Positions 32,666-51,988 of a stretch of 64,000 nt of DNA are shown here, piece by piece. Under the pieces are notes generated by a model. It was not told where the DNA came from. It did no database searches and saw nothing but the letters and a program-made list of their open reading frames with translations. This DNA is from Shigella phage ESh33. Position 1 is the stretch's first letter; each line of letters begins with the position of its first letter. The DNA lies in sequence record ON528743; one strand, written 5' to 3'. The position numbers and the translations under genes are program-made.

Positions 32666-32752
32666 GAATTATTTGTTATTATTAACTCATACCGCACTGA
32701 TTAATACCCTCTATCATCAAGGGTTCTTATTTGAGAGCCTTTGTTAATAATT

Positions 32753-32824
32753 GGGAATTAGCCAAGTTGGTAAGGCACTGGATTTTGATTCCAGGATGCA
32801 AAGGTTCGAGTCCTTTATTCCCAG
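32753..32824 (+). tRNA. tRNA-Gln (UUG)
   Basis: Acceptor TGGGAAT/ATTCCCA; anticodon stem CTGGA/TCCAG, loop TTTTGAT; T-loop TTCGAGT. Confidence 0.85.
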
Positions 32825-32825
32825 C

Positions 32826-32912
32826 GCGAGAATGGTCAAATTGGTAAAGGCACAGCACTTAAAATGCTGCGGAATGATTTCCTTGTGGGTTCGAGTCCCA
32901 CTTCTCGCACCA
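32826..32912 (+). tRNA. tRNA-Leu (UAA)
   Basis: Acceptor GCGAGAA/TTCTCGC; anticodon loop CTTAAAA; long variable arm; 3' CCA encoded. Confidence 0.85.
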
Positions 32913-32917
32913 AATTT

Positions 32918-32991
<74 letters not shown>

Positions 32992-33001
32992 ATTTAATTT
33001 A

Positions 33002-33075
33002 CTCCGTGTAGCTCAGTTTGGTAGAGCGCCTGATTTGGGATCAGGAGGTCCAAGGTTCAAATCCTTGTATGGAGA
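33002..33075 (+). tRNA. tRNA-Pro (UGG)
   Basis: Acceptor CTCCGTG/TATGGAG (two G-U pairs); anticodon stem CCTGA/TCAGG, loop TTTGGGA; T-loop TTCAAAT. Confidence 0.8.
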
Positions 33076-33078
33076 CTG

Positions 33079-33167
33079 GAGGCGTGGCAGAGTGGTTTAA
33101 TGCACCGGTCTTGAAAACCGGCAGTCGCTCCGGCGACTCATAGGTTCAAATCCTATCGCCTCCGCCA
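33079..33167 (+). tRNA. tRNA-Ser (UGA)
   Basis: Acceptor GGAGGCG/CGCCTCC; anticodon loop CTTGAAA; long variable arm; 3' CCA. Confidence 0.85.
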
Positions 33168-33172
33168 GTTTT

Positions 33173-33248
33173 GCTGATTTAGCTCAATAGGTAGAGCAAC
33201 TCACTTGTAATGAGAAGGTCGGCGGTTCGATTCCGTCAATCAGCACCA
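33173..33248 (+). tRNA. tRNA-Thr (UGU)
   Basis: Acceptor GCTGATT/AATCAGC; anticodon loop CTTGTAA; T-loop TTCGATT; 3' CCA. Confidence 0.8.
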
Positions 33249-33249
33249 A

Positions 33250-33324
33250 GGCCCTGTAGCTGGAAGGTTCAAGCAAGCGACTCATAATCGCCAGATGGTG
33301 GTTCAATTCCACCCAGGGCCACCA
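33250..33324 (+). tRNA. tRNA-Ile (CAU; lysidine-type as in T4) or tRNA-Met
   Basis: Acceptor GGCCCTG/CAGGGCC; anticodon loop CTCATAA; T-loop TTCAATT; 3' CCA; Ile assignment by analogy to T4. Confidence 0.75.
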
Positions 33325-33330
33325 AATTAA

Positions 33331-33417
33331 GGGGAGTTATCCCGTAGAGGTAGCGGTGTGGACTGTAAATCCATTGTCATTGCGACTCGGGTGGTTCGAC
33401 TCCATCACTCCCCACCA
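33331..33417 (+). tRNA. tRNA-Tyr (GUA)
   Basis: Acceptor GGGGAGT/ACTCCCC; anticodon stem TGGA/TCCA, loop CTGTAAA; long variable arm; T-loop TTCGACT; 3' CCA. Confidence 0.75.
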
Positions 33418-33421
33418 ATTT

Positions 33422-33496
33422 GGATGTGTAGCTCAATGGCAGAGCGATCGCCTGTTAAGCGATTGGTTATAGGTTCGAATCCTATCACGTCCGCCA
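33422..33496 (+). tRNA. tRNA-Asn (GUU)
   Basis: Acceptor GGATGTG/CACGTCC; anticodon stem ATCGC/GCGAT, loop CTGTTAA; T-loop TTCGAAT; 3' CCA. Confidence 0.75.
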
Positions 33497-33501
33497 AATT
33501 T

Positions 33502-33612
33502 GTGACAACTGTCACATTAATATCTACTTGACGCGATTATAGGGGTTGAACTGATCACTCTTCTCTTAATTTCGTGTGAAGACATCATGATTGTTGGAGT
33601 AGATATTAATGT
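33502..33612 (+). repeat. structured tRNA spacer: palindrome GTGACAACTGTCAC plus 15-bp inverted repeat ACATTAATATCTACT / AGTAGATATTAATGT
   Basis: Left arm 33514-33528, right arm 33598-33612 (perfect reverse complements); right arm overlaps first bases of tRNA-His. Confidence 0.7.
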
Positions 33613-33686
33613 GGCCGTAGTTCAGTTGGTAGAACTCGAGATTGTGATTCTCGTAGTCATGGGTTCGACTCCCATCGGTCACCCCA
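33610..33686 (+). tRNA. tRNA-His (GUG)
   Basis: Acceptor GTGGCCG/CGGTCAC; anticodon stem CGAGA/TCTCG, loop TTGTGAT; T-loop TTCGACT; 3' CCA. Confidence 0.7.
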
Positions 33687-33690
33687 ATTA

Positions 33691-33766
33691 CGGGGCATAG
33701 CTCAGAAGGAAGAGCAAGGACCTTCTAAGTCCTAGGTCGTAGGTTCGATCCCTACTGCCTCGACCA
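33691..33766 (+). tRNA. tRNA-Arg (UCU)
   Basis: Acceptor CGGGGCA/TGCCTCG; anticodon stem AGGAC/GTCCT, loop CTTCTAA; T-loop TTCGATC; 3' CCA. Confidence 0.8.
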
Positions 33767-47813: not shown

Positions 47814-47999
47814 ATGACAAGTGAGCAGGCTTTTAAATTAAGAGAATTAATTGAGACGTATAGTAAAGCTGTTCATACATCAACAATTATTGATGAATCA
47901 GCTTTCTCCGGACATGCTAACAAGATTAAATACAAAACTCTTATGGAAGAAGCTAAAGTAAATCTTGATTCTTATATTGAAACTTTAATTGGTAAATAA
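47814..47999 (+). CDS. small hypothetical protein, 61 aa
   Basis: ATG after RBS GAGGAGTATG. Confidence 0.45.
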   Translation: MTSEQAFKLRELIETYSKAVHTSTIIDESAFSGHANKIKYKTLMEEAKVNLDSYIETLIGK

Positions 48000-48000
48000 T

Positions 48001-48543
48001 ATGAAAGCTGTAATTGAAACAACTGATTTGTTCGGTGACCTGGTTATCGAAAAACGTGATAATGTATACGTTCTGACGCAGGAAGACGATAGTATTACTA
48101 TTCTTCCTATGGAACTGGCTGCGATTTTATCTTATGCTCCCTCAGGAGTTACCGGTGTAACTAATATTACAGGCGACCTCCAAGTTCGTTTTTATCGTGG
48201 CCTTTACGGCGGTAATATTGAAACTGAATTTATGTGTCTTTCTATCAACAATTGGGCAACATTCGTTGCCAAGGTGAAAGAATTCTTAGAATCTGAAACA
48301 GTCGAAACACCCGAAAAGGCTAAACTTCAATGGGCTAAAGATCGCGGTGCTAACATTATTAATCCAGTAGCTGCAAACTATACTACGACTTTGGATGTCA
48401 AGACTTCTTATGAAGATGGCGATGTCGTACTTGTTCGCCAAAATGATGATTCTCGAGCACATATTGTCACATTTACCAAAGACGAAGCTATTGCGCTAAA
48501 GACTTATCTTGATTCTGTCATTCTAACTATGATTTCAAAGTGA
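48001..48543 (+). CDS. hypothetical protein, 180 aa (paralog of next gene; internal two-module repeat)
   Basis: ATG 48001; modules NVYVLTQEDDSITILPMELAAI and VRQNDDSRAHIVTFTKDEAIALKTYL. Confidence 0.55.
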   Translation: MKAVIETTDLFGDLVIEKRDNVYVLTQEDDSITILPMELAAILSYAPSGVTGVTNITGDLQVRFYRGLYGGNIETEFMCLSINNWATFVAKVKEFLESETVETPEKAKLQWAKDRGANIINPVAANYTTTLDVKTSYEDGDVVLVRQNDDSRAHIVTFTKDEAIALKTYLDSVILTMISK

Positions 48544-48549
48544 GGAAAT

Positions 48550-49071
48550 ATGTTTATTTCAAGTGGAAGTGGTTTAATTCGTGTTGAATTTAAAAATGAC
48601 ATCTTTCTTATTCAAGGAGATGATATTATTAAAATGAGTTATGACGAAATCAAGAAAATTTGTCATGCTCTTGAAAGTCATGGAAAAGTGAACGCTGTTA
48701 TTGATATTGGCGATTTATGGGTGACACTTTATGAAGTATCCGAAGGATTTAACATTGAAGATGAAAATAACATTTTAGCTATTGATAAAAGAAGTGATTT
48801 GTTTGATGTATTAAAAGTTTATGAACAGTCAAATGGCGGAAGAAAAGCTGCATTGATTTATCAAAAACCGCATTCATGTGGAACTGCTTCAATCATTTCA
48901 AATATTGAAGATGAAGTTGATACTTATATGTGTGTTTTAAAAGCTGGTGGTGACCGTCATCCGGATTTTATTTCTATTCGTCAAAACAATGGAGAAATTT
49001 CATTATCAAAATCAGAAGCTGAAGCTATGATTAAGTATTTAACAACTGTTACGCCTTCAATGAAAGGATAA
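48550..49071 (+). CDS. hypothetical protein, 173 aa (paralog of previous gene)
   Basis: Shares IFLIQGDDIIKMSYDEIKKI and IRQNNGEISLSKSEAEAMIKYL modules with 48001-48543. Confidence 0.55.
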   Translation: MFISSGSGLIRVEFKNDIFLIQGDDIIKMSYDEIKKICHALESHGKVNAVIDIGDLWVTLYEVSEGFNIEDENNILAIDKRSDLFDVLKVYEQSNGGRKAALIYQKPHSCGTASIISNIEDEVDTYMCVLKAGGDRHPDFISIRQNNGEISLSKSEAEAMIKYLTTVTPSMKG

Positions 49072-49073
49072 TT

Positions 49074-49535
49074 ATGATTATTAATGAAAACGCTTGGCAC
49101 TATAAATTATTCAAATTGTTTAACGATGAATGGCAACGACCTAAGACACTATGCGCATATTTTTGGTCTATTGCCATTCCTACATTTTTCGTTTCTATTT
49201 TTGGATGTGCTATACTCGTAGGGCTAACAATTATTTGTGCAGAAAGCCTACAACGTTGGCTTATTTTCGGTAGTTTATGGACTCTTATTCCATCAGCATT
49301 TATACTTGCCATTTTGTTTGTTTTACTTATTATTGGTTCATTTGTTATTCCTGCACAACTGCATGAAAAATATAAAGATTATAAATGGAAAAAGGATTAT
49401 GCTTTACATGTAGAAAATATTGATAGGGCGTATAAGGGTTTACCTCCTATTCAACCCAAGAAATCTATTATCGTCGAATTTTTAAAAGCGCGTAAAGCTA
49501 AAGTATGTCCTGTTATTGAATATAAGGCTGAATGA
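49074..49535 (+). CDS. membrane protein, 153 aa
   Basis: Two long hydrophobic segments. Confidence 0.5.
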   Translation: MIINENAWHYKLFKLFNDEWQRPKTLCAYFWSIAIPTFFVSIFGCAILVGLTIICAESLQRWLIFGSLWTLIPSAFILAILFVLLIIGSFVIPAQLHEKYKDYKWKKDYALHVENIDRAYKGLPPIQPKKSIIVEFLKARKAKVCPVIEYKAE

Positions 49536-50545
49536 TGAAAACAGTAATGAAAAGCTATTTTGGTAGTCATCTTTATGGAACTTCTACCCCAGAATCTGAT
49601 GTAGATTTTAAAGAAATCTTTGTTCCTCCTGCTCGTGATATTCTTATCGGAAATGTTAAAGAGCATATGAGTAAAAACACTAACAACACATCATCTAAAA
49701 ACACTAAAGATGATATTGACCATGAACTATACAGTCTTAAATATTTCTTTAAATTAGCAGCAGATGGTGAAACTGTAGCATTGGATATGCTCCACACTCC
49801 GCCGGAACTAGTGGTTAAATCTGATTTGCCTGATGTATGGAAATTTATCCAAGACAATCGTTCACGGTTTTATACAACTAACATGAAATCCTATTTAGGA
49901 TATGTCCGCAAGCAAGCTTCTAAATACGGTGTCAAGGGTTCTCGTTTGGCCGCATTACGTGATGTATTGAAAGTAGTTAATCAAATCCCTGACCAGTGGG
50001 TCGACTATCAAGAAGGAATCCCTGATAGACTTCGTCGTACTAAGGTAGAAGATATCAAACACAGACTCCCTGAAAACGAGTTCTGTGAATGGGTGTTCCA
50101 TAATCACGAGAAAACAGGCCCGCAAACGTTCTACACTGTGTTGGGTCGTAAATATCAGACAACACTTTCTCTTATTGAGCTTAAGCAGTCACTGAACAAA
50201 TTAGATGCTGAATATGGTGAACGTGCTCGTAAAGCCGAAGCTAATGAAGGTATTGATTGGAAAGCTCTGAGTCATGCTTGTCGTGGTGGACTTCAACTAT
50301 TGGAAATTTACAAAACTGGTGACTTGATTTATCCACTCCAAGATGCTCCATTTATTCTCGACGTGAAGTTGGGTAAGCATCCATTTAAAACAGTTCAAGA
50401 GTTTTTGGAAGATGTGGTCGATCAAGTAGAAGCAGCATCTACTGAAGCTTCTAAGAACGGTATGCAGCAAAAAGTAGACATGAGTTTCTGGGATGACTTC
50501 CTTGAGAAGGTCTATCTTGAAAACCACCGAAGTTATTATAAATGA
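49532..50545 (+). CDS. nucleotidyltransferase-fold (Pol-beta superfamily) protein, 337 aa
   Basis: N-terminal motif FGSHLYGTSTPESDVDF (hG[GS]-x10-DxD) plus downstream VALDML acidic strand; ATGATGA overlap with previous gene. Confidence 0.6.
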   Translation: MMKTVMKSYFGSHLYGTSTPESDVDFKEIFVPPARDILIGNVKEHMSKNTNNTSSKNTKDDIDHELYSLKYFFKLAADGETVALDMLHTPPELVVKSDLPDVWKFIQDNRSRFYTTNMKSYLGYVRKQASKYGVKGSRLAALRDVLKVVNQIPDQWVDYQEGIPDRLRRTKVEDIKHRLPENEFCEWVFHNHEKTGPQTFYTVLGRKYQTTLSLIELKQSLNKLDAEYGERARKAEANEGIDWKALSHACRGGLQLLEIYKTGDLIYPLQDAPFILDVKLGKHPFKTVQEFLEDVVDQVEAASTEASKNGMQQKVDMSFWDDFLEKVYLENHRSYYK

Positions 50546-50547
50546 TA

Positions 50548-50571
50548 GGGAGCCTTCGGGCTCCCTTTTTT
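50548..50571 (+). terminator. intrinsic terminator (GGGAGCC-TTCG-GGCTCCC + TTTTTT)
   Basis: Perfect 7-bp GC stem, TTCG loop, 6 T. Confidence 0.75.
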
Positions 50572-50595
50572 ATTTCAAAAATTTTTCACAAAACT

Positions 50596-50625
50596 GTTTA
50601 CAAGCATAAAGCTTTATGGTACTAT
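50596..50625 (+). promoter_or_regulatory. early promoter (GTTTAC N18 TACTAT) with AAAAATTTTTCACAAAAC upstream element
   Basis: Near-identical to the cassette at 35163-35192. Confidence 0.55.
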
Positions 50626-50663
50626 ACAACTATCAAAACAAATGAGTAAATTGGAGATACAAA

Positions 50664-50864
50664 ATGACTACTTTGAATAAACGTTTCGGTAAAGCTAAAT
50701 CTGGTTGTGCAGCTGAACGTCGTTATGTTTTCGCTCAGTTAGAAGATGTAGAGTATCAGATTAATCAAGTTCACATTACTGGTATCGAGCCTATGTGTGG
50801 CCTTGAAGCTCTTCGTGAAGTTCGTGACGGGTATCGTCGTGACATCGAAGAAATGTCAAAATAA
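50664..50864 (+). CDS. small hypothetical protein, 66 aa
   Basis: ATG after RBS TGGAGATACAAA. Confidence 0.45.
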   Translation: MTTLNKRFGKAKSGCAAERRYVFAQLEDVEYQINQVHITGIEPMCGLEALREVRDGYRRDIEEMSK

Positions 50865-50873
50865 GTATACAAA

Positions 50874-50905
50874 CTGATAGGACTATGTTATAGTAGTCCT
50901 ATCAA
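50874..50905 (+). repeat. inverted repeat CTGATAGGACTA-TGTTATAG-TAGTCCTATCAA (second copy of the 31229 palindrome, with compensatory changes)
   Basis: Arms complementary at 11 of 12 positions; A-to-G / T-to-C change relative to copy 1 keeps pairing; lies before the AAA+ ATPase gene. Confidence 0.75.
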
Positions 50906-50921
50906 ATCAAAGGAGAATAAA

Positions 50922-51890
50922 ATGAAAACTGTAACTATCAATAAGGGTATCTACTTTGGCAAAGAAATCTCTGGAACTTTTGAGCTCTTAGGCGAATGGT
51001 TCCCAGATAATGCTCCGGTAGATGCGCAAGGAGATGGTAAAGTTTTTGTTGAAATTGACGGTAAACGTCGCGGTGTTTGGGTTTACAAATCAGACATTTC
51101 ATATGATGGTGTAAAAGTTGAAGAAGTTAAAGAATCATATGAAGATATGAAAACCCGCATTAATAAAAGATTTAATGTTATGGGAATGATGACGAATGGT
51201 ATTATTAACGGAAACATTCGTTCATTAATTATCTCTGGTGCGGCGGGTATTGGTAAAACGTATTCTTTAGATAAAGCTTTAAATAAAGCAAATGATATTG
51301 GATACATTGAATATAAAAGCATTAACGGTAAAATCTCCGGTATCGGTCTTTATGAACAGCTTTGGAATAATCGTGAAGAGAATTCTGTCCTTTTGATTGA
51401 TGATGTGGATGTTTTCTCTGATATGGACATTCTTAATCTTCTGAAAGCTGCTCTGGACACTGGAGAGACCCGTAAAGTCTGCTGGAGCACCGCATCTTCT
51501 TACTTAGAAGAAAAAGGCATTGAGCGTGAGTTTGAATTTAAAGGAACGATTGTTTTTATCACAAACGTTGACATTGACCGCGAATTAGACCGTGGTACTA
51601 AACTTGCTCCACATTTACAAGCATTAGTGTCCCGCTCAGTTTATTTGGATTTGGGTGTTCACACTAATGAAGAAATTATGGTCAGGGTTGAAGATGTTAT
51701 TCTTTCAACTGACATGATGCAAAAGCGCGGTCTTTCTGATGAAGAAACTTATAAAGCATTATCATGGATGAAAGTCAATGTTAATCGTTTACGCAATGTT
51801 TCACTGCGTACTGCTCTTTATCTTGCTGACTTTATTATGACCGACAAAAATGGTTGGGAAGAAATTGCTGAGGTTACTCTTCTGAAATAA
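50922..51890 (+). CDS. AAA+/P-loop ATPase, 322 aa
   Basis: Walker A ISGAAGIGKTY, Walker B VLLIDDVD, sensor-like IVFITNVD. Confidence 0.6.
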   Translation: MKTVTINKGIYFGKEISGTFELLGEWFPDNAPVDAQGDGKVFVEIDGKRRGVWVYKSDISYDGVKVEEVKESYEDMKTRINKRFNVMGMMTNGIINGNIRSLIISGAAGIGKTYSLDKALNKANDIGYIEYKSINGKISGIGLYEQLWNNREENSVLLIDDVDVFSDMDILNLLKAALDTGETRKVCWSTASSYLEEKGIEREFEFKGTIVFITNVDIDRELDRGTKLAPHLQALVSRSVYLDLGVHTNEEIMVRVEDVILSTDMMQKRGLSDEETYKALSWMKVNVNRLRNVSLRTALYLADFIMTDKNGWEEIAEVTLLK

Positions 51891-51988
51891 TTCATAAGAG
51901 GCCTTCTATGACAAAAAGGCAGTTCAGAAATAGATTATATGGACTGCCATCAAAAAGATGACTAGAATTAAACTGGTAAATGGAGGTA

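Follow-up and report, generated by a model that had tools for sequence, protein, structure and literature searches.

The gene at positions 49532-50545 (+ strand) of a 64,000-nucleotide (nt) stretch of Shigella phage ESh33 (ON528743; this whole stretch is the window below) is, as judged from its sequence, the ortholog of nrdC.11 of bacteriophage T4, and its product of 337 amino acids (aa) is a member of the RlaP family of Pol-beta nucleotidyltransferases (NTases); this family membership and the NTase fold are close to certain. As for its role, we think it rather probable that NrdC.11 adds one or two untemplated nucleotides to 3'-OH ends of RNA and so fills gaps in nuclease-damaged tRNA before Pnk and Rnl1 complete the repair. 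The gene and its RlaP assignment are already known from RefSeq annotation and from the RlaP literature, and no new kind of element is described. What this study adds is a predicted catalytic triad (D23/D25/D63), a long, insert-bearing type of RlaP that is often paired with a short RlaP in cells, and the frequent pairing of this type with HD phosphoesterase, Pnk, Rnl1 or RtcB genes in other phages.

Identity and Family Assignment

The protein shares 323 of 336 residues (96%) with T4 NrdC.11 (T4p095, NP_049709.1), for which RefSeq gives the product name "nucleotidyltransferase", while the closest record by protein is that of phage vB_EcoM-BECP11, with 99.7% identity. In the profile searches it matched PF10127 (RlaP) with 44.7 bits against a gathering cut-off of 23 (E = 1.7e-11), the match being limited to aa 7-136, i.e., profile positions 23-143 of 249, and PHROG 388, "nucleotidyltransferase", with E = 4e-136. 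Canonical short RlaPs for comparison came from loci of bacteria (265.8 bits over the full length of PF10127 in one case); hhalign placed aa 5-133 of our protein on them with 97.8% probability (E = 8e-13), and when their profile was run against the open reading frames (ORFs) of the window, the NrdC.11 ORF was the sole match (E = 4e-12). PF10127 was also matched by 143 of the 144 homologs sampled for the conservation analysis (34-97% identity, 146 sequences in the alignment), and 3436 related clusters, formed at 50% identity, were found at E ≤ 0.001.

The preliminary description of this DNA, made from the letters alone, had proposed a Pol-beta-superfamily NTase fold from a short motif, had left the subfamily unassigned, and had suggested profile searches and structure prediction as checks. 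Both bear the fold out, with PF10127 above its cut-off, G11-S12 and D23-x-D25 invariant in the 144 homologs, and an NTase core in the model whose top solved matches are NTase-fold enzymes, and the subfamily is RlaP. The assignment is real because of the profile evidence (PF10127, PHROG 388 and the alignment to canonical RlaP) and not because of the short motif, as the ORFs of the window contain a single match to h-G-[GS]-x9-13-D-h-[DE], against a mean of 1.06 in residue shuffles, and the motif alone is therefore not beyond chance.

Nucleotidyltransferase Core and Predicted Catalytic Residues

The AlphaFold2 model (mean predicted local distance difference test score, pLDDT, 92.7; predicted template modelling score 0.82) consists of an NTase core, an insert and a C-terminal helical domain. 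The core is built of strands 3-10, 24-31, 45-49 and 62-68, with a helix at 12-15 following the first of them. Among solved structures the best matches of the model are kanamycin-nucleotidyltransferase (KNTase)-like enzymes of the NTase fold, and among viral structures they are phage nucleotidyltransferases. Sequence searches of the PDB with the protein and with the 144-sequence profile matched no NTase and no PfRlaP chain; accordingly no sequence relationship was detected to KNTase/ANT(4'), 3c18, LinB, AadA or Hailong HalB. KNTase-like enzymes also differ from RlaP in what they do, since they act on antibiotics or polymerise dATP, whereas RlaP acts on RNA ends, and in their genomic context.

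Residues 10-26 read FGSHLYGTSTPESDVDF and hold the Pol-beta signature. Invariant across the homologs are G11, S12, S22, D23, D25, Y132, K244, H248, R251 and P268, and at least 90% conservation is seen for N57, D61, D63, G79, D85 and others. The GS...DxD motif aligns to SGS...SDYDVRF of canonical RlaP, with D23 and D25 on SDYD. For the third catalytic carboxylate, D63 is the most likely residue and would form a set with D23 and D25, because it aligns in hhalign with the invariant D72 of canonical RlaP (LDxNGWD) and lies on modelled strand 62-68; of the 146 aligned sequences, 98% have it. The preliminary description had seen the third acidic strand in VALDML instead. This segment is helical in the model (81-87), and D85, although conserved in 97% of the aligned sequences, does not align to a catalytic carboxylate: GETVALDMLHTP aligns to SNxxLxEWLxSP of canonical RlaP, with D85 on the invariant E94.

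The T4-type protein and the canonical RlaPs of Pseudomonas fluorescens and P. aeruginosa, which are encoded in rtcB-rlaP-rtcA operons (PMC12776372), have in common the GS and DxD motifs, a third aspartate located on the core strand that follows, the acidic position in the NxxLxEWLxSP helix, the K...R motif of the C-terminal helical domain, a two-domain architecture and, in relatives, linkage to RNA ligases. They differ in an extra insert of about 75-100 residues in NrdC.11, in the Pfam match, which covers the N-terminal half of NrdC.11 only, and in the clusters to which the published similarity network assigns them (5 for NrdC.11, 1a for the canonical enzymes).

Long and Short RlaP

The insert has no counterpart in canonical RlaPs of about 250 aa. 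Its strands in the model (155-158, 166-169, 185-192, 196-203 and 206-209) have a lower pLDDT of 73-79. The alignment to canonical RlaP falls into two separate parts, aa 5-133 and aa 236-330, and since aa 134-235 are left unaligned by hhalign, the insert may reach about 100 residues. Behind it follows the helical domain (helices 214-236, 243-262, 285-308 and 317-336), for which an alignment restricted to the C-terminal part gave 79.7% probability (E = 1.5e-5), with DWKAxSHAxR placed on KxYxYALR of canonical RlaP, which we regard as moderate support. As Pfam scans of the C-terminal half and of the insert alone gave no RlaP match, the homology of this domain rests on profile-profile alignment. 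The T4 type is therefore an RlaP enlarged by an insert of about 75-100 residues, which explains why the Pfam match is confined to the N-terminal part.

The placement of the third carboxylate at D63 and not D85, together with the distinction of long from short RlaP, should help in the design of experiments and in correcting annotation. Many GenBank phage records call the NrdC.11 homolog "thioredoxin", an annotation error apparently propagated from the nrdC.x gene names, and one record labels it, also wrongly, as an "HNH homing endonuclease".

Neighbourhoods of the Subfamily in Other Genomes

In other phages and in bacteria, genes of the NrdC.11-type subfamily show genomic linkage with genes for RNA repair. 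We sampled 80 bacterial or archaeal loci, whose proteins are 32-54% identical to NrdC.11, and 79 phage loci outside the T-even group.

In the cellular sample, 17 of the 80 loci have Pnkp, Hen1 or RtcB no more than 8 kb from the gene. A canonical RlaP follows immediately downstream at 23 of the 80, of which 70 have enough downstream sequence. An Asticcacaulis plasmid carries in one run Hen1, Pnkp, an NrdC.11-like NTase (37% identity) and a canonical RlaP, and on a Deferribacter plasmid RtcB is encoded 2.6 kb upstream of the NrdC.11-type gene. Since the long type usually stands immediately upstream of a canonical short RlaP in cellular genomes, the two are probably not redundant.

Several further observations concern these pairs. 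Very often the long gene overlaps the following short one by 4 nt (L093 5001-6790, L098, L124, L148, L153, L160, L161, L171 and others), and Hen1-Pnkp or RtcB is sometimes found upstream of the pair. In L162 and L167 the ORFs with the canonical-RlaP match are of unusual length, 493 and 601 aa, and their starts lie 681-1005 nt before the stop of the long RlaP, so that these may be fused or frameshifted versions. A protein with Ro60/TROVE and vWA domains, a known companion of RtcB operons, is encoded directly upstream of the NrdC.11-type RlaP on a "Candidatus Oleincola" contig (L104, 100-1617), and similar upstream ORFs of about 540 aa occur in three other loci.

In the phage sample, RtcB, T4-type Pnk, T4-type Rnl1 or another RNA ligase was found within 6 kb at 28 of the 79 loci, including direct Pnk-Rnl1-RlaP runs in L251 and L252, and the number rises to 52 when HD and metallophosphoesterase genes are counted too. 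At about 20 of the 79 loci an HD phosphohydrolase gene overlaps the RlaP stop codon. This phosphohydrolase may be an end-healing partner that generates the 3'-OH; in a PDB sequence search it matched PhnZ only, and weakly. These observations concern the gene right after RlaP in L177-L201, L208, L214, L241, L007, L009, L011 and L012: the HD phosphohydrolase, of 130-170 aa, begins within or just after the RlaP stop in about a quarter of the 79 loci, and in a few phage loci a small metallophosphoesterase or a T4-type Pnk takes its position. The longest neighbouring ORFs of distant T4-like loci, read from sequence alone, encode a helicase, a primase-helicase, DNA polymerase, NAMPT, a methylase and ClpP, with no consistent theme.

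Proposed Role and Alternative Explanations

The name RlaP goes back to the linkage of the family with RNA ligase genes, an assignment made by Burroughs and Aravind in 2016, as quoted in PMC12776372 and PMC7824862, and in jumbo phages the distribution of RlaP parallels that of RNA ligases (PMC7824862). A preprint of December 2025 (PMC12776372) reports that the RlaPs of P. fluorescens and P. aeruginosa add one or two nucleoside monophosphates to RNA 3'-OH ends, use Mn2+, favour in a nicked tRNA mimic the broken-anticodon end when the acceptor 3' end is also on offer, and restore aminoacylation of a tRNA that lacks one anticodon-loop nucleotide, while DNA and protein are not modified.

From these homologs and from the gene neighbourhoods we infer the activity of NrdC.11, its tRNA substrate and its cooperation with Pnk and Rnl1. 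In the mechanism that we propose, a host anticodon nuclease would cut the tRNA and trim a nucleotide, as RloC does with the wobble base; T4 Pnk would then remove the 2',3'-cyclic phosphate or 3'-phosphate and phosphorylate the 5'-OH; NrdC.11 would refill the missing nucleotide, and finally Rnl1 would seal the break. Within the enzyme, G11-S12, D23, D25 and D63 of the NTase core would bind the nucleoside triphosphate (NTP) together with two divalent metal ions (characterised homologs favour Mn2+), the RNA 3'-OH end would be held in the cleft, and one or two untemplated nucleotides would be added to it. NrdC.11 is a non-essential accessory enzyme, since T4 tolerates deletion of the nrdC.11-mobD.3 block (PMC9825161). 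RNA repair was discovered in T4, a genetically tractable phage, where NrdC.11 offers a practical way to test the idea of RlaP as an antidote to nucleotide-excising ribotoxins.

Several points weigh against this role. The window of 64 kb holds no homolog of Pnk, RNA ligase, RtcB or the HD protein, and in T4 itself pseT (134.0-134.9 kb) and rnlA (136.3-137.5 kb) are separated by about 78 kb from nrdC.11 (55.4-56.4 kb); rnlB is about 52 kb away. In the preprint, T4 NrdC.11 is placed in "cluster 5" of PF10127 and called an "RlaP of unknown function", the characterised RlaPs belong to another cluster, 1a, and the model put forward there needs the correct nucleotide to be inserted by chance, given the low NTP specificity (PMC12776372). 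Because of the different cluster, the insert of about 75-100 residues and a Pfam match of N-terminal residues only (ending at residue 136), the substrate or the product of NrdC.11 could differ.

The alternatives that we considered are less supported than gap filling. One of them keeps the chemistry and changes the RNA end, so that NrdC.11 would repair or tail the 3'-CCA of tRNA, or tail phage or host RNAs for stability, rather than refill the anticodon loop. The Pseudomonas RlaPs do accept all four NTPs and label many E. coli RNAs, including rRNA-sized species and full-length tRNA (PMC12776372); moreover, neither in T4 nor in the window does the gene form a cluster with Pnk or Rnl1, and the insert of this subfamily could redirect the choice of substrate. 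Nevertheless, the preference of characterised RlaPs for the broken anticodon over the acceptor end speaks against such a function, as do the orthologs elsewhere, which adjoin end-healing and sealing enzymes and not RNA-decay factors, and we consider it unlikely. The CCA-adding enzymes offer a useful comparison here, as they too belong to the Pol-beta superfamily, add untemplated nucleotides to a tRNA 3'-OH and are present in large phages (PMC7824862). RlaP differs from them in adding one or two nucleotides with little base specificity and in its expected site, the broken anticodon loop and not the acceptor end, and the Pfam scan of the NrdC.11 ORF gave no match to CCA-adding or poly(A) polymerase families.

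Besides RNA end repair, which is the function favoured by the evidence, the preliminary description had named nucleotide signalling and antitoxin-like modification, and for these two we found no support. A synthase of oligonucleotides or nucleotide signals, for example a HalB-like enzyme making short oligo(d)A that mimics or disturbs a host defence signal, is suggested by a structural match to HalB, yet this match has 15% identity, a root-mean-square deviation of 4.5 Å and a Foldseek E of about 0.01, and reflects the generic architecture of an NTase joined to a helical domain, which KNTase and 3c18 share. A PADLOC search returned no family at E ≤ 1, Pfam gave no CD-NTase or OAS match, the profiles place the protein in PF10127 and not with HalB or the CD-NTases, and its orthologs have RNA-repair enzymes as their partners in the genome, so that we find signal synthesis very improbable.

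Transfer to a protein or a small molecule, either by an MNT-type antitoxin that AMPylates a HEPN RNase or by an enzyme of the aminoglycoside or lincosamide type, deserves equally little credence. There are weak local matches to NTP_transf_2 and MntA around GS...DxD, but the NCBIfam MntA match reaches 13.4 bits against a cut-off of 60 and spans 18 residues, the window shows no HEPN partner gene close to the NTase gene, and a protein of 337 aa with two domains is unlike the small, single-domain MNT. In addition, E. coli proteins remained unlabelled by the Pseudomonas RlaPs (PMC12776372), and the genes that are conserved next to it elsewhere encode RNA ligases, kinases and phosphoesterases.

Finally, the gene could be an idle passenger that only looks catalytically competent, carried in the nrdC-mobD region, which is hyperplastic in T-even phages. 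This region is deletable (PMC9825161), and its flanking genes differ between relatives: the upstream one is either mobD or a membrane-protein gene, and the small ORFs downstream vary. On the other hand, a homolog is found in 1564 phage records, near full length in 1443 of them, and all catalytic and family motifs stay unchanged over homologs of 97% to 35% identity, a sign of purifying selection for activity; we regard an idle gene as highly unlikely.

Within the gap-filling role, a more specific proposal can be made only tentatively, and we would call it possible but doubtful. The long RlaP of the NrdC.11 type would be a functionally distinct clade whose insert recognises the damaged anticodon stem-loop of tRNA; in cells it would work with the short RlaP encoded immediately downstream and not duplicate its function, and in T4 it would complete the Pnk/Rnl1 pathway as its missing third component, for surviving nucleotide-excising nucleases such as RloC. 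The authors who described RloC proposed that its excision of the wobble base would defeat T4 repair (PMC2610378). If the long RlaP of T4 were indeed such a third component, the question of 2008 whether phage repair reverses RloC lesions would be answered.

The Locus and Its Surroundings

The source of the window is a T4-like phage (Tequatrovirus), in an orientation opposite to the T4 map. Positions 49000-51900 match 815 phage records, and the DNA is 97.8% identical to that of Escherichia phage vB_EcoM-BECP11. The features are collected in Table 1.

Table 1. Features of the nrdC.11 locus and of the encoded protein, with positions in the window.
Feature	Position	Strand	Basis or remark
Coding sequence, NrdC.11 ortholog by sequence, RlaP-family nucleotidyltransferase, 337 aa	49532..50545	+	ORF list; 96% identity to T4 NP_049709.1; PF10127; PHROG 388; AlphaFold2 model
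Pol-beta NTase signature, predicted NTP/metal-binding motif: G11-S12 (49562-49567), D23-V24-D25 (49598-49606)	49562..49606	+
D63, putative third catalytic carboxylate, in K56-N57...D61-x-D63 motif	49718..49720	+
VALDML (aa 82-87) with D85, family-conserved acidic residue on helix	49775..49792	+
Alpha/beta insert, aa ~137-212	49940..50167	+	Beyond end of Pfam match (aa 136); AlphaFold2 model; hhalign gap
K244-x3-H248-x2-R251 (DWKAxSHAxR), conserved motif of C-terminal helical domain	50261..50284	+
Predicted membrane protein, 153 aa	49074..49535	+	PHROG 944 "membrane protein"; context only, outside the enzyme system
Intrinsic terminator-like hairpin and T-run, 8-bp stem, 6 GC pairs, UUCG-type loop	50547..50573	+	Terminator scan; directly after stop codon
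T4-early-type promoter-like site, TTTACA-17-TACTAT with TG	50597-50625		Downstream of the NTase gene
66-aa ORF, PHROG 6200 (unknown function)	50664-50864		Between nrdC.11 and nrdC.10; own promoter-like site upstream
NrdC.10, AAA-type ATPase	50922-51890		99% identical to T4 NrdC.10

The ORF given in the preliminary description is real, and so is its overlap with the ORF of the upstream membrane protein, since the ATG of the NTase gene (49532-49534) and the TGA of the 153-aa ORF (49533-49535) share the sequence ATGA. The T4 annotation has the start at a second ATG (49535), which gives 336 aa; the spacing of an AAGG at 49524-49527 is better for this ATG than for that at 49532. The gene is the same as in T4 and has the same place, upstream of nrdC.10 in the nrdC-mobD early region, but its upstream neighbour in T4 is mobD and not the membrane protein, and a gap of 114 nt separates it there from nrdC.10, whereas the 66-aa ORF lies in between here. 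The translational coupling that had been proposed with the membrane protein is thus seen as an overlap but is not a conserved link, and the membrane protein was rejected as a partner because T4 has the homing endonuclease mobD in its place.

Downstream, features corresponding to those that had been described were found (50547-51890), namely a strong terminator-like hairpin with a T-run (50547-50566 in the scan), a promoter-like site, the 66-aa ORF and the AAA-type ATPase, and the annotation of phage KAW1E185 has a terminator at the place that matches the hairpin at 50547. A second promoter-like site (50866-50894) follows the 66-aa ORF and overlaps a 12-bp hairpin at 50874-50905. NrdC.10 follows the NTase gene at 37 of 78 viral loci, which are mostly T4-like, and in T4-like genomes only; none of the 79 distant phage loci or the 80 cellular loci has this linkage. 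NrdC.10 was therefore rejected as a functional partner, the linkage being confined to T-even-like phages and read as inherited synteny. NrdC.10 is a P-loop protein of the AAA type whose Pfam matches (AAA_14, AAA_22, nSTAND3) are all below threshold, and searches of defence-system and NCBIfam libraries gave no assignment for it.

The preliminary description had also set the gene next to a tRNA array, which in fact lies at 32752-33766, 15.8 kb upstream of the NrdC.11 ORF. The array consists of 11 genes (Gln, Leu, Gly, Pro, Ser, Thr, Met(CAT), Tyr, Asn, His and Arg); T4 has eight tRNA genes, and Tyr, Asn and His look like additions here. The tRNAs for these three are of the GUN-anticodon class, which some anticodon nucleases target, and could be replacement tRNAs.

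Just upstream of the membrane-protein ORF are tandem y05I/MobD.1-like paralogs (47989-48543 and 48550-49071), both of which match Pfam T4_y05I_N and T4_y05I_C, described there as a putative transcription factor. In the KAW1E185 record the neighbouring y05I-like gene is mislabelled "MobD molybdopterin...".

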